Shown: positions 3,217 to 16,739 of the stretch, piece by piece | Numbering within the stretch: position 1 is the first letter of the stretch | Layout of the letters: every line of letters begins with the position of its first letter | Origin: an uncultured Pseudomonadota bacterium | Lineage (GTDB): Bacteria > Pseudomonadota > Alphaproteobacteria > Rs-D84 > CACZYB01 | Reading direction: 5' to 3' | NCBI GenBank assembly: GCA_902785275.1 | Contig: CACZYB010000010.1 | Location: 1-30,715, forward strand | DNA: 30,715 bases | Translations under genes and position numbers: made by a program | Notes under the pieces: model-generated | Told to the model about the DNA's origin: nothing | Seen by the model: only the letters and a program-made list of their open reading frames with translations | Databases searched by the model: none

Positions 3217-3795
3217 ATGAAAAAATATGTTATATTACTTTTGTTAAATATGTTTACATTATCATGTTTAGCAGATACAAGTATTAATGAAGAAAAATAT
3301 TTAATTATAAATTATTCAAGGGCTTTTGGAAGAGGTGGAGAAAGTATGGTTTCTTTGTCAGATTTATCTTATAAAAAAAACTATAAAGATAAAAAAATAG
3401 AAAGTATTAATTATTATTCAAAATCAGATTGTATTAATGAAATTAGCAATTATATAAAAGAAGAAATATCTAGTGATACAGAAAATGGAAAATCTTTTAT
3501 ATATTATTATACTCCAGAAATTTATACAGTGTATTTTTGCATTGAAAAAAACATTTGGAATAGTGTTTATAAAAATGAAAAAGTAATTGCAAATAAGATA
3601 CAAAGAAAACGATATGTAAGTGGAGAGGAAAATATTTACAAAGATTTAAATGATTTTACAGAAAAAATGAAAAAGTGTGGGTTAATACATAAAATTGATG
3701 CAGATTATTTACCAACACCAGAAACTCCAGTTATTTGTGATAAATATAATGAAGAAAATCCAATTCCAACTAAAAAATTAAAGGATTTCTATTAA
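3217..3795 (+). CDS. Exported protein / possible lipoprotein, immediately upstream of tpsB
   Basis: N-terminal MKKYVILLLLNMFTLSCLA signal peptide with a Cys (non-canonical lipobox); AAGGAG RBS. Confidence 0.65.
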   Translation: MKKYVILLLLNMFTLSCLADTSINEEKYLIINYSRAFGRGGESMVSLSDLSYKKNYKDKKIESINYYSKSDCINEISNYIKEEISSDTENGKSFIYYYTPEIYTVYFCIEKNIWNSVYKNEKVIANKIQRKRYVSGEENIYKDLNDFTEKMKKCGLIHKIDADYLPTPETPVICDKYNEENPIPTKKLKDFY

Positions 3796-3812: not shown

Positions 3813-5498
3813 ATGAATAAGTTTGGTTTTTATTTTACTGCTTTTATATCTTTAGCTACAAGTGTAAATGCACAGGTGGCGGAGGATATTCAACGTCATC
3901 AGCAGAATTTGATTGATGCTGGATTTCAAAAGCAAGAACTTGATCGTGCAATACATCAAACTCCCGCTTCAACATTTAAATATGCTGAACCAAAAACTCA
4001 AAAACCAAAATCTTCAAAATGTGTTGATATAAAAACAGTTGAATTTGATGGTAACACTAAACTTTCTAATTTTAGGATTAACCGAATTGTAAAACCATAC
4101 CTTAATAAATGTTTGAGTGTTGATGATATAAATAAGATTTTAAATACTATCACAAATGCCTATATTGATGCGGGGTATATCACAAGTGGGGCATACCTTA
4201 TTAATCCTCAAACAAAACTTAATGATGGTATTCTTCAAATAAAAATTGTAGAAGGGACAATAACCAAATTTACTGGAATAACAGAGGCAGAACGTAAAAC
4301 AGCTTTTCCATGGGTTTTGGGTTCTATCTTAAACCTTCGTGATATAGAACAAGGTTTGGATCAGATGAACAGACTTTCTTCTAATCATGCAAAAATGGAA
4401 ATAAAGGCAAACGAGGATGCAAATGGTACAAGTCAGGTTGTAATCACTAATGAACCAGAAAGTCCAACAAGCTATTCTGTTTATACTGATAATCTTGGCT
4501 CAAAATCAACAGGAGAATATAGATTAGGCCTAAGTTTAGTAGAAGATAATTTGTTTGGTATAAATGATCAACTTAATCTTGGTTATACAAACAGTTTGAC
4601 CTCTGAGTTAAATGAAAAATATTCAAGAGCTCTAAGTTTGGGGTATTCTATTCCTTTTGGATATTGGACTTTTACAAACAATGCATCATTTTCAGAATAC
4701 CAGACCTATATGAAACTACCAGTAAGTGGAGAAAAACTTTATTCGTTTGGTGATAATTTTAGCGAAAGTTTTATTATTGATAGAATTTTATCTAGGGGGC
4801 AAAATTATAAACTTTCATTATCTGCAAGTATGAATTACAAAAAGCCAAATAATTATACAAAGGTGCTTGATATAAAGACTAAGAATGACTCATCAAGCAG
4901 AGAAGTTGCTTTCTTTGAATATGCTTTACCTACAACTTTTTATTTTGATAGAGGTATAATTTTTGTAAAACCATCTTTTGTAGATGGAGCAAACTTTTGG
5001 GGTGTAGAGAAAGATAATGGAACTTATCCACAAAAGGCACAATTTGATGCTTATAAGTTATATTTGTATTCTAACTGGAATTTTGGATATGTAAGCTACA
5101 CTATGGCATTTGATGGACAATATACAGAAGATGAAATTATATCCTCTGAAACAGTATATATTGGTGGAGAAACTTCTGTTCGTGGATTTAAAGATGGTAT
5201 AAGTGGGGATAGTGGTTTTTATGTAAGGAATGATTTTAACCTAAATTTAGCAGAAATATTTAAAACTGAATCTTTATGGGCAAAATCAATAACGCCAAGT
5301 TTATTTTTTGATTATGGATGGGTAAAATCTAATTCAGATGATAGTAAGAATGAACTTTCTGGAGCTGGAACAAAATTATCATTTAGCTATGGTATGTTAG
5401 ATGCATCAGTGTCATATGCTATTCCAATAAAAAAAGAAGATAATATGACATCTAAAGGATATACATCTGTATATGTTGGTATCAAAGGAAGAATTTAG
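3813..5498 (+). CDS. ShlB/FhaC/HecB family two-partner secretion transporter (TpsB/CdiB)
   Basis: Signal peptide; POTRA motifs TNAYIDAGYITS, GILQIKIVEG, LNLRDIEQGLDQMNRL; Omp85 loop-6 motif IGGETSVRGFK; C-terminal beta strands. Confidence 0.95.
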   Translation: MNKFGFYFTAFISLATSVNAQVAEDIQRHQQNLIDAGFQKQELDRAIHQTPASTFKYAEPKTQKPKSSKCVDIKTVEFDGNTKLSNFRINRIVKPYLNKCLSVDDINKILNTITNAYIDAGYITSGAYLINPQTKLNDGILQIKIVEGTITKFTGITEAERKTAFPWVLGSILNLRDIEQGLDQMNRLSSNHAKMEIKANEDANGTSQVVITNEPESPTSYSVYTDNLGSKSTGEYRLGLSLVEDNLFGINDQLNLGYTNSLTSELNEKYSRALSLGYSIPFGYWTFTNNASFSEYQTYMKLPVSGEKLYSFGDNFSESFIIDRILSRGQNYKLSLSASMNYKKPNNYTKVLDIKTKNDSSSREVAFFEYALPTTFYFDRGIIFVKPSFVDGANFWGVEKDNGTYPQKAQFDAYKLYLYSNWNFGYVSYTMAFDGQYTEDEIISSETVYIGGETSVRGFKDGISGDSGFYVRNDFNLNLAEIFKTESLWAKSITPSLFFDYGWVKSNSDDSKNELSGAGTKLSFSYGMLDASVSYAIPIKKEDNMTSKGYTSVYVGIKGRI

Positions 5499-5512
5499 AA
5501 AAGAACTTTGGA

Positions 5513-5714
5513 TTATGGAAAACTATTCCATAAAAGCTCTAATTTTAGGGATTTCTAAAAGAAATAGATGAGTTAGAGAGTAGTGTTGTTATGGGTAGAG
5601 TTTTAGATTAAAACAACTTAGAATTGCAGATTTCTGCTAATTTAGAAAAGTTAGAGAAATGATGTTGAGTGACTCACCAAAAATCAGAAAAAACCGTTCT
5701 CTAAACGATTTTTT
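5513..5714 (+). repeat. Junction element copy 1 (att-like; core CACCAAAAATCA at 5675-5686) with hairpins
   Basis: 5641-5686 matches 11643-11688 at 43/46; perfect IR TTATGGAA/TTCCATAA at 5513-5533; imperfect terminator-like hairpin at 5688-5714. Confidence 0.85.
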
Positions 5715-6130
5715 ATTTCCTACAACACTAGGCTAAATCTAGCCTTTCTTGGGATTTTATCTGTGGGTACCAAATCAATTTTTTCCAAAAATTTTCCATT
5801 TTTTTGAGCCATTTTTCCTCTATTTTCTACGTTTAATCATTGGGTCCCGAGATTAAATTGTCATATAAAATTTGGTTCTTTTTAGGCTAACTATCAGATT
5901 TTACATGATTTATTGAAATTTCAATCATAAGGCCCTCAGTTCGAGTTCTGTAAGGCATAAAGATACCTAATAAACCCCAGAATTTAGCCATTTCTATATT
6001 CATATAAATTTCAGATTTTTTGATTTATATATTCTCTATGTCTTTTTATTTGTACTTTAGAAACATAGATAATACCTTAGTTATTGGTCATTGGTACCGA
6101 TAGAAAAGTTTTTTTATTTTCAGTAGTACC

Positions 6131-6158
6131 AAAACAACCTAATAAAACTCATCTATTT
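6131..6158 (-). repeat. ~28-bp inverted repeat, left copy (partner 11566-11592)
   Basis: Reverse complement AAATAGATGAGTTTTATTAGGTTGTTTT vs AAATAGATGAGTTTTTATGGTTGTTTT at 11566; AAATAGATGAGTT also occurs at 5562-5574. Confidence 0.75.
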
Positions 6159-6185
6159 TGAGAAGCATTATAAGGTTTATTTTCC

Positions 6186-6214
6186 TTGAAAGAAAGTTAT
6201 ATGAAATGTATAAT
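6186..6214 (+). promoter_or_regulatory. sigma70-type promoter of the immunity array
   Basis: TTGAAA-17 bp-TATAAT, followed by AAGGA RBS and ATG at 6241. Confidence 0.7.
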
Positions 6215-6240
6215 ATAGAATATTTATTTAAGGAAATATT

Positions 6241-6834
6241 ATGAAAATAAAATCAAAAGAACTTATTAATCAAATCTCAAATTTATATAATGTTATTTCT
6301 TCAAATAATATAGGTATTGATAATTTATTAAATTATAATTTAGATGATATAATAGATTGTGTATCTCAGGAAGAACAAAAAATCTGTGAGAATTTTAATG
6401 AATTATTTTTAAAATTAGATATAGAAGTTGGTGAGGCTGAACTTGAGGATAGAAATATTAATAAAAATCTAATTAAAGATATGGCTAATAAGGTCTTAGA
6501 AAAAATCAATTATTATAAGTATTTTATAGAAATAGATTTATCTCAATATAGTCCAATTCTTGACATGAATATTAAAGAATATATTAATATTTATACGAAT
6601 GTTAAACCTGATTTTTCAATTGAATTAAATAGTATTGTTCAAGATGGAATAAAAAGTTTCGGATTAAACGATGTTACTATCATTGATTTTATTAGGCAAG
6701 TTTCAATAGAATTAAAGAAATCAAATATTTTACTATTTAAAGATAAACTATGTTATAAAGATATAGAGCAATCATTAAGAGATTGGGAAAAAGATAAAAC
6801 TGATAAGTGGATTTTTAAGTACGGGAAAAAATAA
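6241..6834 (+). CDS. Hypothetical protein, candidate orphan immunity protein
   Basis: 197-aa acidic ORF with RBS; TAATG-coupled to the next ORF. Confidence 0.6.
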   Translation: MKIKSKELINQISNLYNVISSNNIGIDNLLNYNLDDIIDCVSQEEQKICENFNELFLKLDIEVGEAELEDRNINKNLIKDMANKVLEKINYYKYFIEIDLSQYSPILDMNIKEYINIYTNVKPDFSIELNSIVQDGIKSFGLNDVTIIDFIRQVSIELKKSNILLFKDKLCYKDIEQSLRDWEKDKTDKWIFKYGKK

Positions 6835-7295
6835 TGTTTATAAGTTTAAAAGAAAAAATAGGAATAAAAATGTTAAATTTTTTATTTAAAAGACAACGGA
6901 ATAAAGCTCAAAAGGATATTGATGGATTAAATCCAAACACATTAGTCCATAATTATAAAAAAATTTTGGAATTTATTAGCATTAAGATGCCAAAAATGCG
7001 TTGGCAAGACAATTACTTAGACGAAGATATTTGGGCTAATAATGTTAGTGAAATAGATAAATTACATAAAGCATTAAAAAATTTTTATATAGATTACCCA
7101 TTATCGACATATAAGATGAAGTTATATTGTGATAAAAACTGCAAATACTTGTTTGAAGATTTATTTAATGGTAAAAAAGTATCTCAAGATGTAAATCCCA
7201 TAACTCACGTTAAGTGTTCTTTTACTTTAAATGGCAAAACACAACACAAAATGATAAAGATTTCAAAATGCAAATTTATCCTAAAAAGGAACTAA
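6834..7295 (+). CDS. Hypothetical protein (basic) in immunity array
   Basis: 153-aa ORF translationally coupled (TAATG) to the upstream gene; no recognised motif. Confidence 0.55.
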   Translation: MFISLKEKIGIKMLNFLFKRQRNKAQKDIDGLNPNTLVHNYKKILEFISIKMPKMRWQDNYLDEDIWANNVSEIDKLHKALKNFYIDYPLSTYKMKLYCDKNCKYLFEDLFNGKKVSQDVNPITHVKCSFTLNGKTQHKMIKISKCKFILKRN

Positions 7296-7309
7296 AAAGG
7301 GAAAATAAA

Positions 7310-7843
7310 ATGATAAAAGCAAAATATGTAGAAGATATATCAAGTATCAAAGATCTTCTTATTATAGATGGTGAAAAATGTAAGACAGAACAAGATTTAT
7401 TTAATGAATATGCAACTGTACTAAACTTCCCAAGTTGGTTTGGAAAGAATTGGAATGCTTTTGATGAATGTCTGAATGAGTGTGTTTATAACGAAGAGGA
7501 TAAAAATAAACCTATATATGTATATATAAAGAATATAGAAATGATTTGTTGTAAAATGTATATTTTGGAAAGTTTTTCTAATTTCTATAATAAAGTTAGT
7601 TTTGATGATGACGAAGAAAGTAATATTTGTTTTATATTTGATAAACGTACTTTGATGTTTTTACGAAAAGAAATAATCAAAAATTTTAAGAATAATGATT
7701 TTTATCATTTGTTTTTTTCAGATATTTATTGGAATGATGATATTGGTGAAAAAATAAAAGTCCGAATGCTAGAACATTATATTTTATCTTTTTTACATAT
7801 CCTTGGTGTTTTGAATTTGAAAATTATTCTTTTAGAATCATAG
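7310..7843 (+). CDS. Barstar-family (RNase inhibitor) immunity protein with C-terminal extension; probable frameshift near the 3' end
   Basis: IIDGEKCKT..DLF..YATVLNFPSWFGKNWNAFDECL is the barstar signature; ATG at 7310 has an AAGGG RBS and is preferred over 7214. Confidence 0.85.
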   Translation: MIKAKYVEDISSIKDLLIIDGEKCKTEQDLFNEYATVLNFPSWFGKNWNAFDECLNECVYNEEDKNKPIYVYIKNIEMICCKMYILESFSNFYNKVSFDDDEESNICFIFDKRTLMFLRKEIIKNFKNNDFYHLFFSDIYWNDDIGEKIKVRMLEHYILSFLHILGVLNLKIILLES

Positions 7844-7880
7844 AAGATGCAATTTATGATATTTTAAAGAAGGATAAATA

Positions 7881-8429
7881 ATGAACGATAAAAAGGACCT
7901 CTTACAAGTTAAATATTATCTGGAAAATATCTATAACAATATAGATATTGAAAATAATATAAAATTATTTCAAAGTATTATTTGGGATGAAAGTAAAGAT
8001 TTTTCAGAATACCTTCTGGAATTAGCATATGATTTGGACTTCTATAATTCTGATGCCTTGGATGAAAAAGTATGTGGCTTAGCTGATAGAAATGGTTTTT
8101 ATAGTTACAATACTATTAAAGATATGATATACGATACATTAAGAATATTAAATATGGAAGTATTATTAAAAGAACAAGAAGATAAGATATTAGATAAAAA
8201 TTTAAAAAAATGGTATATTGCTCATAAAATACTGCCTAAACGAATTACTATAGAAAATCAAAATCTTTATTTAATTACAGATCATAATGGTGTTGATGAT
8301 GCAAATTATAGAATATTTTTAAATCCTACAAATAATACTTTGGGTTTAGAATTTTTGGATAAAAACGATAACAGTATAATAATTGAAGAAAATATTGCAG
8401 ACTTAAATGAAGCATTAAATAATATGTAA
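7881..8429 (+). CDS. Putative two-domain (poly)immunity protein
   Basis: N-half LELAYDLDFY motif; C-half W...P...LITDH..DD..YRI..N...T similar to ORF 9932..10228. Confidence 0.65.
   Translation: MNDKKDLLQVKYYLENIYNNIDIENNIKLFQSIIWDESKDFSEYLLELAYDLDFYNSDALDEKVCGLADRNGFYSYNTIKDMIYDTLRILNMEVLLKEQEDKILDKNLKKWYIAHKILPKRITIENQNLYLITDHNGVDDANYRIFLNPTNNTLGLEFLDKNDNSIIIEENIADLNEALNNM
8367..8411 (+). repeat. 45-bp direct repeat with 11084-11128
   Basis: GATAACAGTATAATAATTGAAGAAAATATTGCA(G/A)ACTTAAATGAA, 44/45 identical. Confidence 0.9.
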
Positions 8430-8443
8430 AAGGCTAGAAGTAA

Positions 8444-9082
8444 ATGATTATAAATTTAAAAGAAAAAAATATAATTGAAAAATATTTGAAAGAAGCCTCT
8501 TATAAAATAGATGTTATTTCGGATAAAAAATTTGATTTCCAATTTGAAAATTTAGATAAAACAATAGATTTACTAACAGATATTTTTACAAATTATGGTT
8601 TACAAGAAAATGATGAACCTAATGAAGATGGTTTAATTTTAGATAATTTAATAGGAAAATTATGGCAATTAAAGTTAAATAACAATAAAGAAAAACTTGA
8701 TGCATGGATTAAAAATCAAAATGTAAATTATCCATCAAGTGGTCATTTGGATGATATTTTTGAAGTGTCTACAATAGATTTGGATATAATTGAATCTTCA
8801 TTGAATTTGTTATCAGAATGTAATACAAAATCTGAGCCAGATAAGATATTAACTTTATGTATATACTTGAAGGAAAGAAAAAATAGTCTTGCGAATATTA
8901 CTCAACTAAAGATGAATATGTTATCGGAAGAACCTCCTGAATTTGTTTTCCAAAAAAATAAAGATATTCCTACAAAAGAAATTTTTATTAAAAACTTCCC
9001 TGTAAATTTAAAATACTATTTAGGAGAGGTTTTTGATAATGATGATAAATTATATTATCCATACATAGTTGTGAAGAGGTAA
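8444..9082 (+). CDS. Putative two-domain (poly)immunity protein
   Basis: N-half GLQENDEPNEDGLILDNLI is homologous to 2880..3215; unrelated C-half (HLDD...EPPEF). Confidence 0.65.
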   Translation: MIINLKEKNIIEKYLKEASYKIDVISDKKFDFQFENLDKTIDLLTDIFTNYGLQENDEPNEDGLILDNLIGKLWQLKLNNNKEKLDAWIKNQNVNYPSSGHLDDIFEVSTIDLDIIESSLNLLSECNTKSEPDKILTLCIYLKERKNSLANITQLKMNMLSEEPPEFVFQKNKDIPTKEIFIKNFPVNLKYYLGEVFDNDDKLYYPYIVVKR

Positions 9083-9084
9083 TA

Positions 9085-9927
9085 ATGCAAGAAAGAGATG
9101 TTATATTAAAATTAATACATTTATTAAAAGATGATAAGGATATTATTTCCATAGCAAATGATATATTTTTTTACAGAGGTATTTATTCTGATTTTAAATA
9201 TTCTGATAGATTTAGAGAGATTTTGCTAGATATTATTACACAAGAAGAAGGCGAAGAATTTATTATTCCAAAAGAAGAATTGTTGAATAAATTACATTTA
9301 TTGCTTGCAGAAAATAAAAATAGCACTGTTTCAACAGTTGAATTAAGAATTTTAAAGGAAATTTTTAATACTGGTTTTGTATCAAGTAATAATATCACGG
9401 ATTTTGCTTATGCTTGTTCAAATGATATGAACGATTTATTAACTGAATTATATAAATATGAAAATAAGACTATAAATGATGATATAAAATTTAAAATATC
9501 TAGATTTATTCATAAATTGGAAGGAGATGACTTTCTTTCTGATAAACCAACAAATTTAGGCATTGTTTTAGAAGATATAATTAAAAAATTTCCAGACGTA
9601 AAAGATGATGTAGAGCAAGAGTTATCAGATTGTTATATTCCTATAAATGCTATAAAATATTTATCTCATTTGGATATAATAATGTTTAGTGTTATTGGGC
9701 GTGTTTGTTTTAGGAAATATAAAGATAATAATATTGAGTATGTAAAAAATGTTTTTGATTATATGGAAAACCTTTATATGAAGGATAAAACATTTGATCT
9801 AAGTATAAAAACAGGATTTGTCGAAGCCTTTGTTAATCAGTTTGATAGTGTAAATGATATACAAAGTATAATAGAATTTATGTCCGAAAACTTAAAGAAA
9901 TATGTTTCTGCATATATTGGAGAGTAA
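9085..9927 (+). CDS. Putative multi-domain polyimmunity protein
   Basis: N-terminal helical module ending QEEGEEFIIPKEEL; C-terminal helical module FPD...VFDYMENL...IKTGFVEA (DUF7674-like by eye). Confidence 0.6.
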   Translation: MQERDVILKLIHLLKDDKDIISIANDIFFYRGIYSDFKYSDRFREILLDIITQEEGEEFIIPKEELLNKLHLLLAENKNSTVSTVELRILKEIFNTGFVSSNNITDFAYACSNDMNDLLTELYKYENKTINDDIKFKISRFIHKLEGDDFLSDKPTNLGIVLEDIIKKFPDVKDDVEQELSDCYIPINAIKYLSHLDIIMFSVIGRVCFRKYKDNNIEYVKNVFDYMENLYMKDKTFDLSIKTGFVEAFVNQFDSVNDIQSIIEFMSENLKKYVSAYIGE

Positions 9928-9931
9928 TAAA

Positions 9932-10228
9932 ATGAATGAATTTGCAAGTTATAGCATATTAAGTGACAAAGTAAAAAATTCTCACCTTCCACGATATGTT
10001 AAAGATTGGTTCTTTGAGTATATGGATGTCGTTCCTTTTGAAAAAAGTATTTATGATTTAGACGGTAATAATTTTAAAATTACAGATAAAATTGTTGATG
10101 ATGGAGAATATTTGATTTGTTATAATAGCTTTGATGATACTTTCTATTTCATCTGTCTAGATGATGTTGGAAATATGAAAATACATGGAAAAAGTAATAA
10201 TATTATAGGCATACTAACTTTTAGGTAA
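9932..10228 (+). CDS. Candidate orphan immunity protein
   Basis: ATG 9932 with GGAG RBS (preferred over 9902); similar to the C-half of 7881..8429. Confidence 0.6.
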   Translation: MNEFASYSILSDKVKNSHLPRYVKDWFFEYMDVVPFEKSIYDLDGNNFKITDKIVDDGEYLICYNSFDDTFYFICLDDVGNMKIHGKSNNIIGILTFR

Positions 10229-10234
10229 AATAAC

Positions 10235-10552
10235 ATGACAAAAAATATTAAGTATATAAATAGTAAAGTTATAGATTTTAAAGGCAACAAAATCTTCTTT
10301 GAGAATGGAAGTATTTTAATTGTTATTTCAGATTTTAAATTTACTGGAGAAAAGATAAAAGGACTATTTCTTTCGGATTACGAAATTTCTGAAAAAAAGG
10401 TTAAGTTTAATTTTGAAAATAAATGCGATATAGAAATTATCGCTCCGTATTCTGAGGATGAGGTTTTCTGTGTAATTAATGTAGATGAGAAATATAGATG
10501 CCTATTAACAAAAGATAATATTTTTGGAGAATGGATAGGATTAGAGAAATAA
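10235..10552 (+). CDS. Candidate orphan immunity protein (beta-rich, similar to 1034..1381)
   Basis: Two IxFEN/FxFEN beta-hairpin units; tight operon spacing. Confidence 0.55.
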   Translation: MTKNIKYINSKVIDFKGNKIFFENGSILIVISDFKFTGEKIKGLFLSDYEISEKKVKFNFENKCDIEIIAPYSEDEVFCVINVDEKYRCLLTKDNIFGEWIGLEK

Positions 10553-10564
10553 AGGGAAAATACA

Positions 10565-11041
10565 ATGATTGATTTTACAAAATTTTACGATGATCTTAGT
10601 TTTATCTATGCCTTGTTTATGGAGAATAAATTAACCATAGATGATATAAGAAAAATTTCTGATAAATTAGTTATTGAAGATGGTAATGATTATTTAGTTA
10701 ATATATTAATTTCAAATGATGAAGAAGTTTCAAATTCTTTTGAAAATTATTTCAAAGATAAAAACATAATAATAGAAAATCCTAAAATAGAAATTACGAA
10801 GAAAATTTTTTCATATATCTTAAAAGGTTGTATTTCTATGAAGGCTGGTATTGATTTTGTGCATTACCAAATTAGTGATCAGTCAAAATATAAAAAATAT
10901 GTTGGTGATGATTTAGGTATAGAGCAAATTTTAGGAAACTATTTTGCAATAGATGATGGAGATGTTGCTGATGAAAAACAAATTCATGAACTTACACAAG
11001 AAATATACAAAGAAATGCAGGAATATATTGAAAAGTATTAA
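10565..11041 (+). CDS. Candidate orphan immunity protein (helical, acidic)
   Basis: 158-aa ORF, AAGGG RBS, within the co-oriented array. Confidence 0.6.
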   Translation: MIDFTKFYDDLSFIYALFMENKLTIDDIRKISDKLVIEDGNDYLVNILISNDEEVSNSFENYFKDKNIIIENPKIEITKKIFSYILKGCISMKAGIDFVHYQISDQSKYKKYVGDDLGIEQILGNYFAIDDGDVADEKQIHELTQEIYKEMQEYIEKY

Positions 11042-11065
11042 AATTAATAAAAGGAAAATTATTAA

Positions 11066-11146
11066 ATGAAAATAAAATTTAAAGATAACAGTATAATAAT
11101 TGAAGAAAATATTGCAAACTTAAATGAAATATTAGAAAATTTATAG
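11066..11146 (+). pseudogene. 26-aa remnant mini-ORF MKIKFKDNSIIIEENIANLNEILENL
   Basis: Has an AAGGA RBS and stop codon; the body duplicates the last codons of ORF 7881..8429 in the same frame. Confidence 0.65.
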
Positions 11147-11155
11147 GAGGTATTT

Positions 11156-11539
11156 ATGCAACAAGAATATAGAATATTTTTACCACATGAAATACAAAAT
11201 AAGGTCTTTCCTTTAGTTCCATACTATAATAACCAATTAGGATTTTATATAGATATCTTAGATGATATTATAAAATTTGTAAAAGAATATGAACTTTTAA
11301 TAGGTTATGGAGAGATCTTTAAAAAAATAGATGATAAAGATTTTGATTATGATCCAACGGGATTTACTCATTGGGAATACAACTATAAACCAGAAAATGA
11401 ATATAGAAAATCTGTATCAGAAGCGATAGAACAGATGAAAGAGTATTTAAAATTTGTATCTTCTATAAGACAAGATAAATATTTAATTTCAATAAAGTTG
11501 TATGATAAATATAGCATTCAAAATTTTATAAATGACTAA
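11156..11539 (+). CDS. Imm40-like immunity protein
   Basis: AGGAGG RBS; pattern LIGYGEIF...THWEY...SVSEA..MKEYL resembles Imm40 (ILGGDVY...DNWY...S...A..YI). Confidence 0.6.
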   Translation: MQQEYRIFLPHEIQNKVFPLVPYYNNQLGFYIDILDDIIKFVKEYELLIGYGEIFKKIDDKDFDYDPTGFTHWEYNYKPENEYRKSVSEAIEQMKEYLKFVSSIRQDKYLISIKLYDKYSIQNFIND

Positions 11540-11565
11540 ACTTTTAACCTTTTGATTTTTTTAGT

Positions 11566-11716
11566 AAATAGATGAGTTTTTATGGTTGTTTTTGTTTATC
11601 CGAAATAGATTAGAAACTTGTAGAATAGCAAAAAGACTGACTTTTAGAAAAGTTAGAGAAATGGTGTTGAGTGGCCCACCAAAAATCAAGAAACCGTCCT
11701 AGTAATGGTTTTTTCT
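11566..11716 (+). repeat. Junction element copy 2 (core CACCAAAAATCA at 11677-11688); starts with the right copy of the 28-bp IR
   Basis: Colinear with 5562-5714 (AAATAGATGAGTT ... TTTAGAAAAGTTAGAGAAATG ... CACCAAAAATCA ... AAACCGT hairpin). Confidence 0.85.
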
Positions 11717-12094
11717 TTGCCTGTAAACCCTAGGTTCTGCCTAGTGTTTGGATTTCAGATTTTTCTATAAAACCCACAGAATTGATTAAAAACAAATTTT
11801 TCACAGTATTTTCTCTCTATTCTCTATGCTTTATCTGTGGGCTCCGTTAACCATTTGATATTACTTAGTTTTCTTTTGATGGGTATCTTAGAAAAGTTGT
11901 AAAAAAATTAACCAGTAGCGGATTTATATTTGCTAACTGATGCATAGAGGTAGTCTTAAATTTTAAAACCTTAGTTTTCTGTGATATTTACGGGGCCTAT
12001 AGACTTTATTAATAAAAACAAATTCCTTCTAATTATTCCTAATTTATGGTATGATAAATTTAATTATTAGACTAAATTATTGATAAAATAAATA

Positions 12095-12123
12095 TTGACA
12101 AATAATAATTATAAGTCTATATT
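12095..12123 (+). promoter_or_regulatory. sigma70-type promoter of the helicase gene
   Basis: TTGACA-17 bp-TATATT; the ORF track's TTG start at 12095 is this -35 box. Confidence 0.75.
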
Positions 12124-12145
12124 TATATCAAATGAGGTATATAAA

Positions 12146-14764
12146 ATGAATATAGTTAATTTAGTAAAAAATACAATATTAGATAATGTTAAAGCATTAA
12201 GGATTGGTATAAGTAAATTTTTAGAAGAAGAACAAAATTTACCTGATGATACCCCACGTAAACTTCGTGGAAAACAAACTGAAGTTTTTGAGGCATTATT
12301 AAAACCGGAATTTTCAGATGAAGATATTGCAAGAGGTTATTTCAAACTTCCAACCGGATTTGGAAAAACTGTTATGTTTGCTCATTTAACAAAATCTTTC
12401 TTAAATGAAACACCTGATAGTAAAAAGAAAATATTGGTTTTGGTACCAAGAATTAACTTACTTGAACAAACAGATGAAAAATTTGATAAATTTATAGGAG
12501 TAGATACAAGCTACTTTTATGGTAAAGAAAAAGATACATCTTCAAGAGTAATTATTTCAACATACCAATCTCTTAGTAATTTATTAAAAAATATTAATAA
12601 AGAAGATATAGATTTAATTATTGCCGATGAAGCTCATCATTCTCTTGGTGAAAATACAAGTAAAATATTTAAAGATTTACAAAAGTATGCACCTACAATT
12701 GCATTTACCGCTACACCAAATTATTCAGGTGATAAAAAGTTATCAAACTTATTTTCGAAAGAAATTTATTCAATGACCACTATTGATGCAGTACAAAACA
12801 ATATGTTGGTTCCTGTAAAAAATATTCTTTTAAGGTCAAGTATTGAATTTGATTTATCTCAAATTAAAAAGAAAACTGATGGAAATTTTGATTATGAAAA
12901 AATTGCAAATTCTATAAGTATGGAAACATTATCCAAAGAAATTGCAAAGGCATATTTGTATGGTGAAGATAAGGATGAAGAAGGTAATTCATTCCGTTTT
13001 TTTGGTAAAAAGGCAATGATAAGTTGCCCTAATGTTAAAACAGCAATAGAGCAAGCAGAAAAACTTAATGAACTTGCGGGGCAAGTTATTGCAAAACCAA
13101 TATTCCAACATATGGGAATGTCTTCAAGATTTGGTAAGTTCGATGAAACAGTCGAAGATTTCAAAAATAATAAATTCCTTGTTGCATGTCAGGTTAATAC
13201 CTTAACTGAAGGTTTTGATGATACAGAGGTAAGTATCAGTATTAATTATCCAACATCATCTCCTGTAAGAGAAGAGCAATCTGCAGGTCGTGCACTTCGT
13301 ATCAATGAAAAAGATCCGAACAAAGTTGCATATGTTATTGATACAGTATTTTCTGTTGGTAAAGATGATGAAAATCCATTTGAAACTGCACAAAAGGCTG
13401 GACAAGTTTTATTTAGTGATGTTGCTGGTGCATCTGTTATATTCCCTGAAAATTTTAAACATAAAAAAGAAGAAAATGATAGGGATAATAAAGGAAAAGA
13501 TAAAGAAAAATTTCCACTTCCAACACCAGATATAGAAATACCAGGATTTAAAATTTTTACTGACACAGAAAAATTATTACAGGTGTTTAATGACAAAATA
13601 AAAGATGATAACTACTATTCTACCATAGATTTAGCTAACGATAAATCTTTAGGTGTAGAGGCTTCTCATACTACACATCGTAAATACCTAAATAAAGCTT
13701 ATAATTCAAATGATCCTAAATATGCTAAACTAAAAACTCATATAAGAAAAACTAGAAATGATGAACTACGTTTGCATAAGGATGGTTTGGAACTATACAA
13801 AGAAATCTATTTTAGCAATAATCGGTATTCTGCCGCAGATTTAGCTAACGATAAATCTTTAGGTGTAGAGGCTGCTAAATCAACGCATTGGAGATACCTA
13901 AATGAAGCTTATGAATCAAATGATCCTAAATATGCTAAACTAAAAACTCATATAGAAAAAATTAAAAACGGACTACGTTTGCATAAGGACGGTTTAGAAT
14001 TATATAAACAGATCTATTTTAGCAATAATTGGTATTCTACCACAGATTTAGCTAACAATAAATCTTTAGGTGTAGGGGCTTCTAACTCAACACATTGGAC
14101 ATACCTAAATGAAGCTTATAAATCAGATGATACTAAATATGCTGAATTAAAACCTTATATAGGAAAAATTAAAAATGGACTAAGTTTGCATAAGGACGGT
14201 TTAGAATTATATAAACAGATCTATTTTAGCAATAATTGGTATTCAGCCACAGATTTAGCTAACGATGAATCTTTAGGTGTAGAGGCTTCTATAAATACAC
14301 ATTATAGATACCTAAAAGAAGCTTATGATAAATATGCTGAATTAAAACCTTATATAAAAGGACCACGTTTGCATAAGGACGGTTTAGAATTATATAAACA
14401 GATCTATTTTAGCAATAATTGGTATTCTGCCTCAGCTTTAGCTAACGATGAATCTTTAGGTGTAAAGGCTTCTAAAAATACACATTTGAATCACCTAAAT
14501 AAAGCTTATAATTCAAATGATCCTAAATATGCTGAACTAAAAACTTATATGAAAAAAACTGATAAAGGAAGTAAAAGTTTTATATATTTGCGTAAAGATG
14601 GTTTGAAGCTATATGTTCAAACATTTAAAATAAAAATCAGAGATCCTGAAATGTTTGAAAAAGCAACAAAGAAAATAGAACAAAAAATTGCGATGGAAGA
14701 TGCGGCACAAAATGCAAAATCTTCAATCAATAAAACTATAGCAGGTGACAACGAAGGAAGATAA
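12146..14764 (+). CDS. SF2 DEAH-box helicase (ResIII-like + helicase C) with five C-terminal HTH-like repeats
   Basis: LRGKQ (Q motif), LPTGFGKT (Walker A), ADEAHH, FTATP, LTEGFD, QSAGRALR; ATG 12146 has a GAGG RBS. Confidence 0.9.
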   Translation: MNIVNLVKNTILDNVKALRIGISKFLEEEQNLPDDTPRKLRGKQTEVFEALLKPEFSDEDIARGYFKLPTGFGKTVMFAHLTKSFLNETPDSKKKILVLVPRINLLEQTDEKFDKFIGVDTSYFYGKEKDTSSRVIISTYQSLSNLLKNINKEDIDLIIADEAHHSLGENTSKIFKDLQKYAPTIAFTATPNYSGDKKLSNLFSKEIYSMTTIDAVQNNMLVPVKNILLRSSIEFDLSQIKKKTDGNFDYEKIANSISMETLSKEIAKAYLYGEDKDEEGNSFRFFGKKAMISCPNVKTAIEQAEKLNELAGQVIAKPIFQHMGMSSRFGKFDETVEDFKNNKFLVACQVNTLTEGFDDTEVSISINYPTSSPVREEQSAGRALRINEKDPNKVAYVIDTVFSVGKDDENPFETAQKAGQVLFSDVAGASVIFPENFKHKKEENDRDNKGKDKEKFPLPTPDIEIPGFKIFTDTEKLLQVFNDKIKDDNYYSTIDLANDKSLGVEASHTTHRKYLNKAYNSNDPKYAKLKTHIRKTRNDELRLHKDGLELYKEIYFSNNRYSAADLANDKSLGVEAAKSTHWRYLNEAYESNDPKYAKLKTHIEKIKNGLRLHKDGLELYKQIYFSNNWYSTTDLANNKSLGVGASNSTHWTYLNEAYKSDDTKYAELKPYIGKIKNGLSLHKDGLELYKQIYFSNNWYSATDLANDESLGVEASINTHYRYLKEAYDKYAELKPYIKGPRLHKDGLELYKQIYFSNNWYSASALANDESLGVKASKNTHLNHLNKAYNSNDPKYAELKTYMKKTDKGSKSFIYLRKDGLKLYVQTFKIKIRDPEMFEKATKKIEQKIAMEDAAQNAKSSINKTIAGDNEGR
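13610..14625 (+). repeat. Five in-frame coding tandem repeats (units start 13610, 13820, 14027, 14234, 14417; first four 210/207/207/183 bp)
   Basis: Consensus NxYSxxDLANDxSLGVxAxxxTHxxYLNxAY...KYAxLKxxI...LHKDGLELYKxIYFSN; DNA-level identity is obvious. Confidence 0.95.
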
Positions 14765-14810
14765 AACCTTTGTTTTTAGCCATTTTATAAAATTTAGATC
14801 AATTTAGTAA

Positions 14811-14930
14811 TTATGGAAATGGTAGGGTATTCCCATAAGGTACAAATTAGAGAAGTGTAAAAATAGTAGATTTCTCTAATTACAACAAAAGTTATAAGAA
14901 GTGCTATGGTGTTACCCACCAAAAATCAGA
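14811..14930 (+). repeat. Junction element copy 3 (core CACCAAAAATCA at 14917-14928), island/core-genome boundary
   Basis: TTATGG...CCATAA hairpin as in copy 1; AGATTTCTCTAATT...AAAAGTTA...CACCAAAAATCAGAAA; internal IR AATTAGAGAA/TTCTCTAATT at 14845-14881. Confidence 0.75.
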
Positions 14931-14958
14931 AAGGCTTCCTTACGGAGGCCTTTTTTTT
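14930..14958. terminator. Rho-independent terminator
   Basis: AAAGGCTTCC-TTAC-GGAGGCCTTT stem followed by a T tract; also faces the convergent gene ending at 14971. Confidence 0.8.
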
Positions 14959-14970
14959 ATCTTGTCTTGA

Positions 14971-15330
14971 TTAATTATTCAAATCTGTTGATGGCAAAAT
15001 ATAGTTTTCATAAGTTACAACAGGAACAGTCTTTCTTTCGCCAAGACCTGTTTTATACTCATAAATACCACTGTGTACAGCACACTTACCCGCAGGAATT
15101 TCAATTTTTGCAGTATCAAAGTATGTTACACCAGGTTCTTTTGCAATTTTGACAGTTGTTGTGTAATGACATTTGCCAAACAATGTATCTTCACATGCTT
15201 TTGCAAGTACATAGTCAGTACCAACTTGATAAACTTCGAATGCTTCGTAATCTTTACAATTTTCATTTCTTACACCTTCAAAAGGAACACAAGCGCAAAG
15301 AAGTAATGGTAAAAGTAATGATTTTTTCAT
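14971..15330 (-). CDS. Hypothetical lipoprotein
   Basis: MKKSLLLPLLLCAC lipobox; AAGGAG RBS; DUF3157/OB-like GxYxYxT motif not assigned. Confidence 0.75.
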   Translation of the reverse strand: MKKSLLLPLLLCACVPFEGVRNENCKDYEAFEVYQVGTDYVLAKACEDTLFGKCHYTTTVKIAKEPGVTYFDTAKIEIPAGKCAVHSGIYEYKTGLGERKTVPVVTYENYILPSTDLNN

Positions 15331-15478
15331 TTATTATCTCCTTTTTAATTTTAATCAAGATATATTTTATATAATTAAAAGAATAATACAAGGAAATTTT
15401 TCCGCATAAGCTTTTTTCTTGATTATCTTTTAAAATTGATTTATATTTAACGACGGTTCACAAACAAAAGGGAAAAAA

Positions 15479-15880
15479 ATGATAAATATTCTTTTAGTTC
15501 TTAATATTATAGTAGTAGTTTTACTTATTGGAATAATCCTTCTTCAAAAATCCGAAGGTGGTGTTTTGGGTATGGGTGGTTCAGGATCCAGAAATGGTAT
15601 CTTCACAACAAGAAGTGCCGGAAATCTTGTAACAAAAACAACATATATCCTTGGAGCACTATTCTTTTTAATCTGTATCTTGCTTGCATTTTTGGTTTCA
15701 CGTCGTGATAACTCAAAATCATTTATCGAAACTATGGCAAAAAAAGATAGCGTAGAAGTTAAAGAAGTAAAATCTTTGTCTGTTAATAAAATTCCAGAAG
15801 ACAAAGTAAAAGAAGAACTTAAAAGAGAAGCAATAAAGGTTGAAGCAAAAAAGAAACCTACTGCTCCTGTTACAAAATAG
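15479..15880 (+). CDS. secG: Preprotein translocase subunit SecG
   Basis: ILLQKSEGGVLGMGG...RSAGNLVTKTTYILGALF, two TM helices. Confidence 0.95.
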   Translation: MINILLVLNIIVVVLLIGIILLQKSEGGVLGMGGSGSRNGIFTTRSAGNLVTKTTYILGALFFLICILLAFLVSRRDNSKSFIETMAKKDSVEVKEVKSLSVNKIPEDKVKEELKREAIKVEAKKKPTAPVTK

Positions 15881-15898
15881 GTTATTCTTAAAAAAATC

Positions 15899-15933
15899 AT
15901 CCCCACTTTTGTTTTTCATAGTGGGGATTTTTT
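15899..15933 (+). terminator. Rho-independent terminator after secG
   Basis: ATCCCCACT/AGTGGGGAT stem plus T tract. Confidence 0.8.
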
Positions 15934-16008
15934 ATTAAATATACTCTTTACAAAAATTGAGAATTATGAGATAATAGACCCATTATTAACGATAATAAAG
16001 GTATTAAA

Positions 16009-16716
16009 ATGGCTAAACCTGTTATTAAAAATATTATGTGGGATGTTGATGGTGTGCTTGCAAATCTTGACCACGCTTATTTCCGTTTCTTAAAGGAACA
16101 TCCAAATTATAAGGAGGAGTACAAGGATTTAAAGTGGGAAGATTTGCCAAAGGCTTTGCCTATTGATCCAAAATTTGGTTCACTTGAATTAACATCTCAT
16201 CCAACAAAGGGTAAAGAATTTAACGAAGATTTTTGCCACAATAGTGGTGAAATTTATTTCGATCGTCCACTTTATGAAGGGGTTGTTGAAACATTGACTG
16301 ACCTTCATAATCGTGGCTATATGCAACTTACTATGTCATCTGGTTTCAATGCTGAAATAAAAAGAAAGATGATTGCTGACACATTGGGCGATAAACTTTC
16401 ATTTGTAAACATTGAAGTTGTTGAACACCAAAAATCAACAGAGGATGCAACTCATGGTAAGGCTATGGTTGGTGAAAAAGAACAACGCATTATCGAATGT
16501 TTGAAAAAATATAACCTTAAACCAGAAGAAACAGTTTTGGTTGATGACCGTATCTTCAATTGTCAAACTGCGGTAAAGGTTGGTATGCACACTGTTCGTT
16601 GTCGTGCTGGTTTCACAACTGATACACCTGCTGATGTAAAGGCAACTTTTGATGCAGAAGTAAAAGGTGTTGCAGAATTCAAGGATTGGCTTTTGAATAA
16701 TACAACAAAATATTAA
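16009..16716 (+). CDS. HAD-superfamily hydrolase
   Basis: Motif I DVDGVL, motif II TMSS, motif IV VLVDDR. Confidence 0.85.
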   Translation: MAKPVIKNIMWDVDGVLANLDHAYFRFLKEHPNYKEEYKDLKWEDLPKALPIDPKFGSLELTSHPTKGKEFNEDFCHNSGEIYFDRPLYEGVVETLTDLHNRGYMQLTMSSGFNAEIKRKMIADTLGDKLSFVNIEVVEHQKSTEDATHGKAMVGEKEQRIIECLKKYNLKPEETVLVDDRIFNCQTAVKVGMHTVRCRAGFTTDTPADVKATFDAEVKGVAEFKDWLLNNTTKY

Positions 16717-16739
16717 TAAAATAATAAAAGGAGATTTTT

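Follow-up and report, generated by a model that had tools for sequence, protein, structure and literature searches.

Results

Gene content of the locus

The window, by which we mean the whole 30,715-nt stretch analysed here (contig C10 of genome G000), begins with a row of co-oriented genes in three cassettes (A, B and C), which are separated by non-coding arms and followed by chromosomal genes. The features are as follows.

2–415, + strand: 3' end of cdiA (toxin C-terminal domain), cassette A, open at the contig start
445–3795, + strand: six small ORFs of cassette A, immunity-like or orphan modules, with DUF2247 in 1394–1933
3813–5498, + strand: cdiB/TpsB outer-membrane transporter, final gene of cassette A (ShlB, E = 1.9e-69; POTRA_2 and POTRA_3)
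5551–5674, + strand: right arm, copy 1 (alignments; match to right-arm model R1 at 5551–5718, E = 2.3e-21)
5675–5686, + strand: core 1, CACCAAAAATCA after a T, which gives TCACCA, a tail of the tRNA-Arg type
5687–6240, + strand: left arm of cassette B, with a weak hairpin (5688–5714), a palindrome (about 5723–5744), a TTTTTCCTCTATTTTCTA box (5813–5830) and a promoter-like site (6186–6214)
6241–11539, + strand: cargo of cassette B, about 11 small co-oriented ORFs, immunity-like
11554–11676, + strand: right arm, copy 2 (R1 match 11554–11718, E = 1.6e-35)
11677–11688, + strand: core 2, preceded by GGCC
11689–12123, + strand: left arm of cassette C, with a hairpin (11688–11714), a palindrome (11730–11744), boxes (11809–11826 and 11888–11905) and a promoter-like site (12095–12123)
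12095–14764, + strand: cargo of cassette C, a ResIII/SNF2-type helicase (Pfam) with about five 69-aa C-terminal repeats
14798–14916, + strand: right arm, copy 3, the most diverged (R1 match 14798–14958, E = 9.4e-20)
14917–14928, + strand: core 3, preceded by ACC
14928–14955, + strand: strong intrinsic terminator at the array end, 12-pair stem, also found by a terminator scan; putative B' side of an attR-like junction
14971–15880: first chromosomal genes past the array, a 119-aa ORF (− strand) and secG (+ strand; SecG, E = 1.1e-15)

The toxin end of cdiA (2–415) gave a weak Tox-URI2 match (E = 0.005) that fell below the cut-off, and cdiB is the sole ShlB match genome-wide. In cassette B, Pfam recognized Barstar in ORF 7214–7843 and DUF7674 in ORF 9085–9927, and PADLOC returned zero matches to defence systems. 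Paralogues of ORF 3217–3795 lie at C4:15034–16212 (83% and 59%), and those of ORFs 445–987 and 2880–3215 of cassette A and 7214–7843 of cassette B lie where contig C8 begins. Cassettes A and B are thus both CDI-related, with immunity genes that have paralogues elsewhere in the genome; a first-pass annotation had described three functionally distinct cargos, a description that fails because CDI-type immunity genes are present in both A and B. The helicase gene of cassette C, which probably starts further downstream than the TTG at 12095, contains a tandem repeat with a period of 207 and weak PADLOC matches to REase_I and PbeA; it was found in 0 of 13 congeners. The core genes said to follow the third copy are indeed conserved, the secG segment being kept in 13/13 congeners, but elsewhere in their genomes.

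A core repeat resembling tRNA tails

The exact 12-mer CACCAAAAATCA starts on the + strand at 5675, 11677 and 14917, the three positions originally reported; a further match, at 16426, lies inside a HAD-hydrolase gene and is unrelated to the array. These four occurrences compare with 0.02 expected in the window, a count reached in 0 of 100 shuffles. A repeat search returned a single family of three copies, 51 nt long and spaced 6002 and 3240 nt apart, the other two being 90% and 65% identical to copy 1.

The proposed likeness of the core to tRNA 3' ends was borne out by the genome's real tRNAs, since those for Phe, Asn, Gln and Met end in CCA followed by (T/A)AAAATCA and a hairpin. The tRNA-derived identity extends over just 6–8 nt plus this generic trailer, and the pseudo-tails of the window (TCACCA, CCCACCA and CCCACCA) differ from the tRNA-Met tail, GCCACCA. 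The 45 nt upstream of the core bore no significant likeness to tRNAs in 9/9 arms (shuffles reaching the score, 0.13–0.98), ARAGORN detected no tRNA genes inside the window and Rfam gave no gathering-level match there.

Arms, hairpins and terminators

Three-way alignment agreed with the arm homology claimed earlier: the right arm (~130 nt) is homologous before all three cores, and the homology 3' of the core (hairpin, CTAGG..CTAG palindrome and TTTTCTCTATT box) is limited to copies 1 and 2, which alone are followed by a non-coding left arm of 400–550 nt. Such a left arm far exceeds the usual length of a P' arm and includes a promoter; in cassette B the promoter-like site matches at 11 of 12 promoter positions. 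Right arm copy 2 is 94% identical to C1:45100–45227 and 84% identical to C2:151227–151361.

A hairpin with a T tract is present at each copy, as had been noted, but the hairpins are unequal, running from strong at copy 3 (−16.8 kcal/mol, z = −4.7) through moderate at copy 2 (−7.2 kcal/mol, z = −1.8) to weak at copy 1 (−3.9 kcal/mol, z = −1.7). The clean terminator described behind copy 3 is therefore real, and it is 80% like the terminator behind tRNA-Met on contig C7.

A probable tRNA-Met anchor

A tRNA had been predicted to the left of the array, and contig C7 carries tRNA-Met(CAT), which ends in GCCACCA. Behind it come AAATCA, a terminator and the left arm known from the window, and then the start of cdiA. 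This cdiA, the genome's only gene with a TPS domain and FHA repeats, runs off the contig. Because the 5' part of the sole cdiA is on C7, and the sole cdiB and a toxin C-terminus are in the window, C7 almost certainly joins the left end of C10; the two contig ends share no overlap. The genome, of ~1.05 Mb, comes from a bovine gut metagenome.

The read-level check drew on the contigs of the best-holding run, with no other read data. Contigs bridge copy 1 (3926–7325) and copy 3 (14504–18000), and at copy 2 one contig gives way to another, the two overlapping by 21 nt (11628–11648); the 94% identical arm at C1:45100–45227 would branch the assembly graph at this copy. The suggested search of reads for circles yielded neither a circle nor an excision junction among these contigs, and because contigs were the sole read data we infer mobility rather than observe it.

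The same arms at other tRNA genes

The R1 search of the genome gave seven matches, one of which is the tRNA-Met trailer itself. Each of the remaining six has a tRNA upstream of it on its own strand, so the element is not scattered irrespective of tRNA genes; three are in the window and the others are C2:151226, C4:14809 and C1:45112, at 11.5 kb from tRNA-Lys(ttt), 8.8 kb from tRNA-Arg(cct) and 1.9 kb from tRNA-Lys(ctt), respectively. A left arm directly abuts the intact tRNA-Met, tRNA-Lys(ttt) and tRNA-Arg(tct); behind Arg(cct) the arm is a variant, and behind Leu(gag) it has a short form. The arm family is thus a multi-locus, tRNA-linked one, occurring at the window's array and at five other tRNA genes. 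The Arg island ends in a TCACCA pseudo-tail and the Lys islands in CCCACCA; together with a Met island in congener G001 (GCCACCA, with a 15-nt direct repeat, E = 8e-4), these indicate that pseudo-tails track the head tRNA at islands other than the window's. Arm-only remnants that lack the core occur at C1:45112 and on contig C16 of congener G003.

Cargo replacement among congeners

At a threshold of E <= 1e-4, the right arm was detected in 7/13 congeners, in 0/5 genomes of the family's other genera and, marginally, in one of 102 genomes of other families, which confines it to the genus. Alternative cargos, which had been expected in relatives, were found between the same arms at three sites. 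G000 and G003 are 91% identical over 743 nt at Arg(cct), with no likeness beyond and different cargo; G000 and G011 share the tRNA and left arm at Lys(ttt), and G000, G012 and G001 share them at Met, again with differing cargo. Cargo has thus been replaced between species. The site of the cdiA cassette is tRNA-Met in G000 and tRNA-Arg(tct) in G001, while in G011 the cassette lies behind a pseudo-core. G011 also has an independent two-islet array with three cores at tRNA-Lys(ttt). The end of the G000 Lys(ttt) island matches the tail and trailer of the intact G011 tRNA-Lys(ttt) at 39/40 positions. The empty site also looked for in relatives was not found in clean form with both flanks conserved, as the synteny of the array's surroundings is not preserved in the congeners.

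At the core, left and right parts combine independently of each other: the left part of copy 2 is 87% like the end of the G011 Lys island (right part, 67%), and its right part, the trailer of left arm C, shares 90% identity with the trailer behind tRNA-Met in G001. Mosaicism also extends beyond the core, with a T2 terminator joined to a type 1 body at copy 1 and a T1 terminator joined to a type 2 body at tRNA-Met.

Recombinase genes

Cassettes B and C had been said to encode no recombinase, and Pfam searches of all ORFs of A, B and C extended this to cassette A. All genome-wide PF00589 and PF00239 matches are on contigs other than the window's. The tyrosine recombinase sought upstream was absent from upstream of the array and from its interior, and no integrase lay in or beside any array inspected (five or six loci in G000, two in G011, and those in G001 and G003). 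Large tyrosine recombinases of 516 and 507 aa, both intact and 60% identical to each other, immediately follow the 3' ends of tRNA-Thr(tgt) and tRNA-Gly(tcc). Their left arm contains an AAATC..GATTT inverted repeat, of which AAATC is common to the cassette trailer, but it is a different left arm, and the R1 search found no right arm in their islands. G011 has six R1 matches yet lacks the large integrase type (about 510 aa). Integrase decay can be seen at tRNA islands in this lineage: a G011:C2 island ending in a right arm has a split integrase (164 + 96 aa), and at tRNA-Leu(taa) of G000 a 56-aa piece of the large integrase is left, with a frameshift.

Discussion

With confidence a little above even, we favour tandem accretion, in which non-autonomous, CIME-like islets would have been added by site-specific recombination at a tRNA CCA end, the recombinase having been lost or acting in trans. 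The window would be the distal part of a three-islet tandem array anchored at the 3' end of tRNA-Met(CAT). Each islet consists of a 400–550-nt left arm, cargo, a right arm of ~130 nt and a pseudo-tRNA tail (xCACCA then AAAATCA). The left arm combines a hairpin and its T run with an 8+7+8 palindrome and conserved boxes rich in A/T, and it has a sigma-70-like promoter that may drive expression of the cargo. The tRNA junction would be B-O-P' (attL-like), the inter-islet junctions at copies 1 and 2 right arm-core-left arm, or P-O-P' (attP-like), and the last junction, at copy 3, right arm-core-terminator-chromosome, or P-O-B' (attR-like), in keeping with the tandem-integration arm pattern recognized in the first-pass annotation. 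Repeated site-specific integration of circular elements into the tRNA CCA end would yield such a layout. The islets would be CIME-like because they lack an integrase, and may be fossils whose recombinase has decayed or elements moved by one encoded elsewhere. Their cargo is biased towards conflict genes, namely the CDI toxin, transporter and immunity genes, orphan immunity genes and the helicase.

An unlikely but substantial alternative is that homologous recombination shuffles the cargo, the arms (130–550 nt, dispersed in 10 or more copies per genome) serving as portable homology. RecA could form circles from direct repeats that re-enter any arm by a Campbell-type event, or cargo could be swapped after DNA uptake, so that a dedicated recombinase would be unnecessary. 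The lack of integrase in all inspected arrays and the core-less arm remnants are consistent with shuffling, as are mosaic boundaries outside the core, where terminator type and left-arm body assort separately, and a 281-nt non-coding block, 94% identical between G000 and G011, which lies inside islands with flanks of about 75% identity and ends away from any core. However, shuffling leaves unexplained the tRNA-tail mimic at the end of every right arm, the invariable start of arrays exactly at a tRNA CCA end and the tracking of the head tRNA by pseudo-tails at the Arg, Lys and Met islands, and arms that are 65–90% identical between copies in one genome are a poor RecA substrate.

We regard it as quite improbable that the array is immobile, the arms being regulatory elements (tRNA-style trailers and terminators, and a shared strong promoter leader) that duplication and gene conversion have spread around three adjacent operons. 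In its favour, AAAATCA plus a hairpin is the genome's generic tRNA trailer, the promoter module TTTATTTTCCTTGAAAG also lies behind an unrelated integrase-bearing island at C2:25143, the tRNA-Arg(cct) island contains housekeeping-looking genes (e.g. glutathione peroxidase, a DXS-like enzyme and flavin reductase), and no excision product was seen, which is not decisive with contigs only. Against it, congeners carry totally different cargo between identical arms, none of the 13 has the helicase, the cdiA cassette occupies three sites in three species, and a terminator needs neither a CCA-tail mimic nor a 130-nt conserved upstream arm that has no RNA structure.

Very improbable is a live integron-like platform, as first proposed, where promoter-bearing cassettes are inserted and shuffled at many tRNA CCA ends by one recombinase acting in trans. 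Six tRNAs of one 1.05-Mb genome use one arm family, and the two intact large recombinases, with the AAATC common to their left arm and the cassette trailer, would be candidates; but this integrase type was not found in the array-bearing G011, and the candidates' own islands have the other left arm and no right arm. Like integrons, the array is a row of co-oriented, recombinase-less cassettes bounded by a repeated recombination-site-like element, with cargo biased to accessory and conflict genes. Unlike integrons, it has no adjacent intI, no attI and no attC-type folded site, it is tRNA-anchored, and each cassette has a long leader with its own promoter-like site; we therefore rejected the integron assignment. 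IMEX elements and pdif modules are also integrase-less and form tandem arrays with the aid of the host recombinase Xer. The genome's one canonical-looking dif candidate is at C6:43646; the cassette junctions do not resemble it, and a Xer/dif-based system was likewise rejected. Almost no weight can be given to the idea that right arm and core make up a structured RNA, be it a small RNA gene or an element at the 3' end of the cargo mRNA that resembles a tRNA, which would fit the CCA end, tRNA-style trailer and terminator, since RNAalifold predicts the terminator hairpin only, with no pair in the 130-nt arm (covariation term +0.48), neither Rfam nor ARAGORN gives a match, and indels and frame are not conserved.

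The layout that tandem accretion would produce is already known from decayed mobile islands; unusual here are the lack of a recombinase gene and the reuse of conserved ends at several tRNAs. Islands at ssrA of Dehalococcoides reportedly have their own recombinase genes and a repeat of about 20 nt of ssrA, whereas here there is no recombinase and several tRNAs are targeted. Those islands are described as horizontally acquired and located at a single small-RNA gene (PMC3146451). The variable tycheposon islands of Prochlorococcus lie beside several tRNA genes, and successive integrations push older elements inward, leaving partial tRNAs and fragmented integrases (10.1101/2020.12.28.424599). The defining features of tycheposons are a tyrosine recombinase and a replication module, neither of which the array has, and tycheposons are not known to have the long conserved non-coding promoter arms seen here.

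The closest parallel is CIME accretion, as in ICESt1/ICESt3 of Streptococcus thermophilus and the IME/CIME tandems at streptococcal tRNA-Lys, whose islets are similarly integrase-less; according to the account in PMC5704250, CIMEs retain attL and attR but lack integration and transfer genes, and tandem accretion follows a three-step scenario. The present array differs in that the genomes searched yielded no intact ICE or IME partner with its arm family, and its tRNA-derived repeat is just 6–8 nt plus a trailer. It also differs in its host, a genome of ~1 Mb from a bovine gut metagenome, in the use of one arm family at six tRNAs and in a left arm that is a 400–550-nt leader with its own promoter.

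Repeated junctions in the window

Analysis of the window revealed three copies of the 12-mer CACCAAAAATCA (the core) at 5675, 11677 and 14917, with 0.02 expected; a fourth match, at 16426 within a HAD-hydrolase gene, is unrelated. A repeat search of the window placed the three core sites in one 51-nt repeat family with spacings of 6002 and 3240 nt. Three-way and nine-copy alignments showed that the ~130 nt preceding each core are homologous (the right arm, R), and that a long homologous stretch of 400–550 nt (the left arm, L) lies downstream of copies 1 and 2 only, confirming what the first-pass annotation had observed. The hairpin that it had placed after each copy is present at all three, but these are of unequal strength (copy 1, −3.9 kcal/mol; copy 2, −7.2 kcal/mol; copy 3, −16.8 kcal/mol) and only that of copy 3 passed the terminator scan. 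The window yielded neither a tRNA nor an Rfam family nor a recombinase; the Pfam search, which covered all window ORFs up to 23339, bears out the absence of a recombinase from the blocks of small immunity-like ORFs (block B) and of the helicase (block C).

The window is one entire contig (C10) of a source genome of 18 contigs (1.05 Mb, 32% G+C, 95.7% complete). The single TPS-domain gene of this genome begins on contig C7, ~430 nt past tRNA-Met(CAT), as a 2143-codon open frame that contains all FHA-repeat matches and runs off the contig, and the only TpsB lies in the window, which begins within a toxin C-terminus; C7, reversed, therefore almost certainly precedes the window, although the two contig ends do not overlap and are separated by a gap, across which we infer cdiA to continue. 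The tRNA-Met on C7 ends in GCCACCA, followed by AAATCA, a terminator of −17.1 kcal/mol and an L arm 76% like that of copy 2. A tRNA had been predicted left of the array and, given the join of the two contigs, this is it. The tyrosine recombinase predicted with it is absent, all five PF00589 matches of the genome lying outside C7 and C10.

Because C7 reversed almost certainly precedes the window, we read the array as tRNA-Met, L, cdiA with immunity ORFs and cdiB (cassette A), R and core 1, L, block B, R and core 2, L, the helicase, R and core 3, a terminator and the chromosome. Read in this way, cassette A contains all parts of a CDI or two-partner secretion locus, namely TpsA, toxin, immunity and TpsB:

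C7, TpsA N-terminus, TPS (E = 3.8e-37) and Fil_haemagg_2
cassette A, toxin C-terminal domain, weakly named (Tox-URI2, E = 0.005)
cassette A, immunity-type gene, DUF2247 match
3813-5498, TpsB, ShlB (E = 1.9e-69)

The core reads as a mimic of a tRNA tail and its trailer, because in real tRNAs of this genome (Phe, Asn, Gln and Met) the terminal CCA leads into (T/A)AAAATCA and then a hairpin. The likeness of R to a tRNA is limited to xCACCA, with nothing significant beyond, and ARAGORN and Rfam each returned no tRNA gene or pseudogene at the cores of the window. The arms at C4:14.9k and on contig C2 of the congener G011 resembled tRNA-Arg(cct) by eye; when the last 45 nt of nine arms were compared with 39 genomic tRNAs, none of the nine beat shuffles, and R was rejected as a decayed tRNA 3′ half. 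R was likewise rejected as a small ORF, a 35-codon frame being open in G011 and broken by indels in the other copies.

Modular left arms

The modules of L occur in a fixed order in 10 of 13 aligned trailers:

module 1, hairpin and T run
module 2, 8+7+8 palindrome, AACMCTAG-N7-CTAGYSTT
module 3, box TTTTCTCTCTATTYTCTA, 125-139 nt from CCA
module 4, second box, TTAGAAAAGTTGTA
module 5, predicted σ70-like promoter

The best two promoter-like sites in 5400–15100, matching 11 of 12 consensus positions (6186–6214 and 12095–12123), lie at the ends of the two L arms, and the module is kept in other L arms; by consensus match, each cassette is predicted to carry its own promoter-like site. The R box TTAGAAAAGTTAGAGAAA and the L box TTTTCTCTCTATTCTCTA are 76% complementary over 17 nt, and the latter was not recovered at ≤3 mismatches; we regard their inverted-repeat relation as a lead, not a finding. 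The L of copy 1 and the L behind tRNA-Arg(tct) have in common an extra insert of ~200 nt (at window 5830–5950 and C4:83790–83990, respectively) with a 15-nt match to the tRNA-Lys(ttt) anticodon arm and a T-arm-like GTTCGA motif; the insert may be a tRNA remnant.

The arm family at other tRNA genes

A sequence-only model of R gave seven matches in the source genome, one being the tRNA-Met trailer. The remaining six are all downstream of a tRNA on the same strand, three of them in the window and three elsewhere:

C2:151226, 11.5 kb from tRNA-Lys(ttt)
C4:14809, 8.8 kb from tRNA-Arg(cct)
C1:45112, 1.9 kb from tRNA-Lys(ctt), core lost

The matches are thus all tRNA-linked, and the scatter regardless of setting that would speak against the first-pass interpretation was not seen in this genome. 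L lies directly behind intact tRNA-Met, tRNA-Lys(ttt) and tRNA-Arg(tct), a variant of it behind tRNA-Arg(cct), and a short terminator-plus-promoter form behind tRNA-Leu(gag), with no recombinase in any of these islands. Among the products of the genes carried there are LysR and MerR, a KAP NTPase, a patatin, DUF4379 proteins, a UmuC-like polymerase, a DXS-like enzyme, a glutathione peroxidase and a phosphatase. If our reading is right, at least 48 kb (~4.6% of this ~1-Mb genome, by our own sum of island lengths) resides in integrase-less cassettes on at least five tRNA genes, and these cassettes concentrate the toxin, immunity and defence repertoire of a reduced genome from the ruminant gut.

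Paralogues of the immunity-like ORFs of the window occur at C4:14965–16212 and C8:1–2808, one locus lying directly behind the terminal R-core of the tRNA-Arg(cct) island, which puts spare immunity genes at three or more loci. The ORF at 3217–3795 has paralogues of 83% and 59%, and those at 445–987, 2880–3215 and 7214–7843 (Barstar-like) also have paralogues in these stretches.

Arrays and alternative cargos in relatives

R was detected at E ≤ 1e-4 in 7 of 13 congeners (10 of 13 at E ≤ 0.01), in none of five genomes of the family's other genera and, marginally, in one of 102 genomes of the order's other families; a metagenome scan with a 29-nt R-arm pattern returned one 1.4-kb contig, of the type of the congener G003. 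The conserved arms offer a simple sequence handle for finding cassettes, and listing their cargo, in metagenomes of the genus.

G011 has an independent array at tRNA-Lys(ttt), in the order tRNA-core-terminator, L, cargo, core, L, cargo, R-core, with core and terminator present three times and a zeta toxin and SAM synthetase as second cargo. In another congener, G001, a 4.5-kb islet at tRNA-Met is bounded by a 15-nt direct repeat. The alternative cargos anticipated in relatives were found, in that the same tRNA and L are followed by wholly different cargo in different species: at tRNA-Arg(cct), the source genome and G003 are 91% identical over 743 nt, where homology ends; at tRNA-Lys(ttt) with its L, the source genome and G011 differ in all cargo; and at tRNA-Met, the arm is 94% alike in G012 but the genes beyond differ. 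The site of the cdiA cassette with its leader also varies: it is tRNA-Met in the source genome and tRNA-Arg(tct) in G001, and in G011 the cassette follows a pseudo-core (a core bearing a tRNA-tail mimic, or pseudo-tail).

tRNA-Met is present in 11 genomes, the source genome included, with L homology behind it in three (the source genome, G012 and G001); in the other eight, two of them on short contigs, the trailer runs into unrelated sequence. No empty site emerged from these loci: the 119-aa gene and secG are located elsewhere in G003 and G012, and the flank beyond the G001 island matches no other tRNA-Met locus.

Behind a DUF4379 gene lies a non-coding block of 281 nt that the source genome (C2:144128–144408; locus L025:5628–5908) and G011 (locus L018:7980–8259) share at 94% identity, with tRNA-Lys flanks ~75% identical; it leads into an R-core in G011, and the core is absent in the source genome.

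Recombinases

Tyrosine recombinases of the source genome, and the remnant of one, are found at the following places:

two Xer-like recombinases, kept in all 14 genomes of the genus
C2:22680-32308, integrase-bearing island at tRNA-Thr(tgt)
C1:221423-223144, integrase-bearing island at tRNA-Gly(tcc)
C4:55547-55713, frameshifted 56-aa remnant of a large integrase at tRNA-Leu(taa)
C16, partial tyrosine recombinase

The two large enzymes share 60% identity, and each is encoded immediately 3′ of its tRNA: that of 516 aa (C2:22895–24445) at tRNA-Thr(tgt), that of 507 aa (C1:221621–223144) at tRNA-Gly(tcc). The left arm at these sites is not that of the cassettes, and the arm family at the decayed copy also differs from theirs. 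The tRNA-Thr(tgt) island carries a type I restriction-modification-like operon. G011 has arrays and lacks the large integrase type; on its contig C2, an island closed by an R arm contains a split integrase.

The 13 congeners yielded no autonomous relative carrying these arms. Integrases of ~390 aa in G011, G013, G009 and G004 were rejected as the parent, having no arms and no intact tRNA nearby, as was a G005 integrase near tRNA-Met, whose partial tRNA copies break in the anticodon region, indicating a different att type. At the G005 locus (C7:18500–38499 of that genome, L031), two partial inverted tRNA-Met copies (positions 32–77 and 1–39) and the integrase, of 366 aa, lie near the intact one; this element recombines in the anticodon region, unlike the CCA-end cassettes.

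The source genome also encodes four serine recombinases and has no rve-type and no Y1 transposase; with no terminal inverted repeats seen either, a transposase origin was rejected. So was Xer/dif mobility (IMEX), in which a dif-like 28-bp site stands at the junctions. The best dif-like site of the genome, C6:43646 on the minus strand, agrees at 22 of 28 positions with a proteobacterial dif motif; the junctions are unlike it, and none is among the matches to this motif at ≤8 mismatches.

Origin of the array

Anchored at CCA, the left and right parts of the junctions assort independently. Copy 2 and the end of the G011 Lys array, for example, are 87% alike on the left side but only 67% on the right, where copy 2 is 90% like the trailer of the intact G001 tRNA-Met; the end of the Lys island in the source genome is identical at 39 of 40 positions to the tail and trailer of the intact G011 tRNA-Lys(ttt). 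Recombination at the core or beside it would be expected to leave this pattern. At Arg, Lys and Met islands outside the window, the pseudo-tail corresponds to the tRNA at the head of the island. Within the window it is of Arg type at core 1 and of Lys type at cores 2 and 3, and nowhere of Met type, which fits cassettes that bring their own P arm between sites.

We give somewhat better than even credence to the array having arisen at tRNA-Met by accretion of elements like CIMEs, which keep att sites without integration or transfer genes. Direct repeats that take in the target gene's 3′ end flank the array (a 12-nt exact core in three copies, of which the tRNA-derived portion is short, 6–8 nt), and inside it there are no integrase, excisionase or transfer genes. 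Its anatomy is that of the tandem accretion of decayed integrative elements set out in passages of PMC5704250 on CIMEs, and also matches the successive integrations at tRNA-linked islands of Prochlorococcus in passages of 10.1101/2020.12.28.424599. Unlike the elements in those passages, the present family lacks integrase-bearing members throughout the genomes searched, serves six tRNAs with one arm family, has a very short tRNA-derived repeat and has as its left arm a long leader with a predicted promoter. Tycheposons differ in having a tyrosine recombinase and a primase/helicase replication module; here there is no recombinase, and the block C helicase, which is of ResIII/SNF2 type and weakly resembles restriction enzymes, is no primase-helicase. 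The literature searched yielded no description of the arm family, which does not prove that none exists.

Terminator types and L-arm bodies assort too, and not only the two sides of the core, so homologous recombination or gene conversion among copies contributes as well; as the main explanation in place of CIME-like accretion, arm-mediated homologous recombination seems to us rather unlikely. Among the contig joints listed (four runs, contigs only) none is at a core, and all sides are 20–22 nt, a result that neither favours nor disfavours circular forms.

We think it unlikely that the cassettes belong to a live, genus-specific capture system, in which a recombinase acting in trans would insert and shuffle promoter-bearing cassettes at the CCA ends of many tRNAs (Met, two Lys, two Arg and Leu), reading a generic xCACCA and A-rich trailer and not one tRNA; the 516- and 507-aa tyrosine recombinases are concrete candidates for the enzyme. 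In functional terms, such a system would correspond to an integron anchored at tRNA genes and serving toxin, immunity and defence genes, within a ~1-Mb genome. If the cassettes are mere fossils, they are a clean example of tRNA-linked islands decaying into modular, self-promoted gene blocks. That the repeats, with their terminators and promoter-like sites, are non-mobile regulatory punctuation is a still less probable account.

The interpretation of the first-pass annotation is partly supported by the tRNA and the alternative cargos, and its integron-like platform, as a live one, is very doubtful. In integrons, an IntI-type recombinase adjoins the array, attC sites, which are imperfect inverted repeats, fold as single strands at cassette 3′ ends, and the mostly promoterless cassettes are read from a common Pc; here, C10 and C7 encode no such enzyme, R pairs only in the terminator, and a promoter-like site stands at each L end of the window. 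By these features the array is not an integron. A structured RNA is scarcely credible, since R has no conserved fold, the consensus of nine right arms pairing only in the terminator hairpin.

The helicase cassette

The block C helicase is absent from all 13 congeners; in another family of the order, 9 of the 92 genomes have it, at 38–48% identity. There, it lies 140–310 nt behind tRNA-Pro(tgg) at two of four loci inspected (L047, G108:C5; L048, G106:C4), indicating that tRNA-linked placement of this helicase is not limited to the genus. The TTG start listed for the window ORF coincides with the best promoter-like site (12095–12123), and the real start codon is probably downstream. The C-terminus (window 13546–14569) holds ~5 tandem units of 207 nt (69 aa), 67–87% identical to one another, and a 42-nt piece of the unit resembles 3977–4018 within cdiB.
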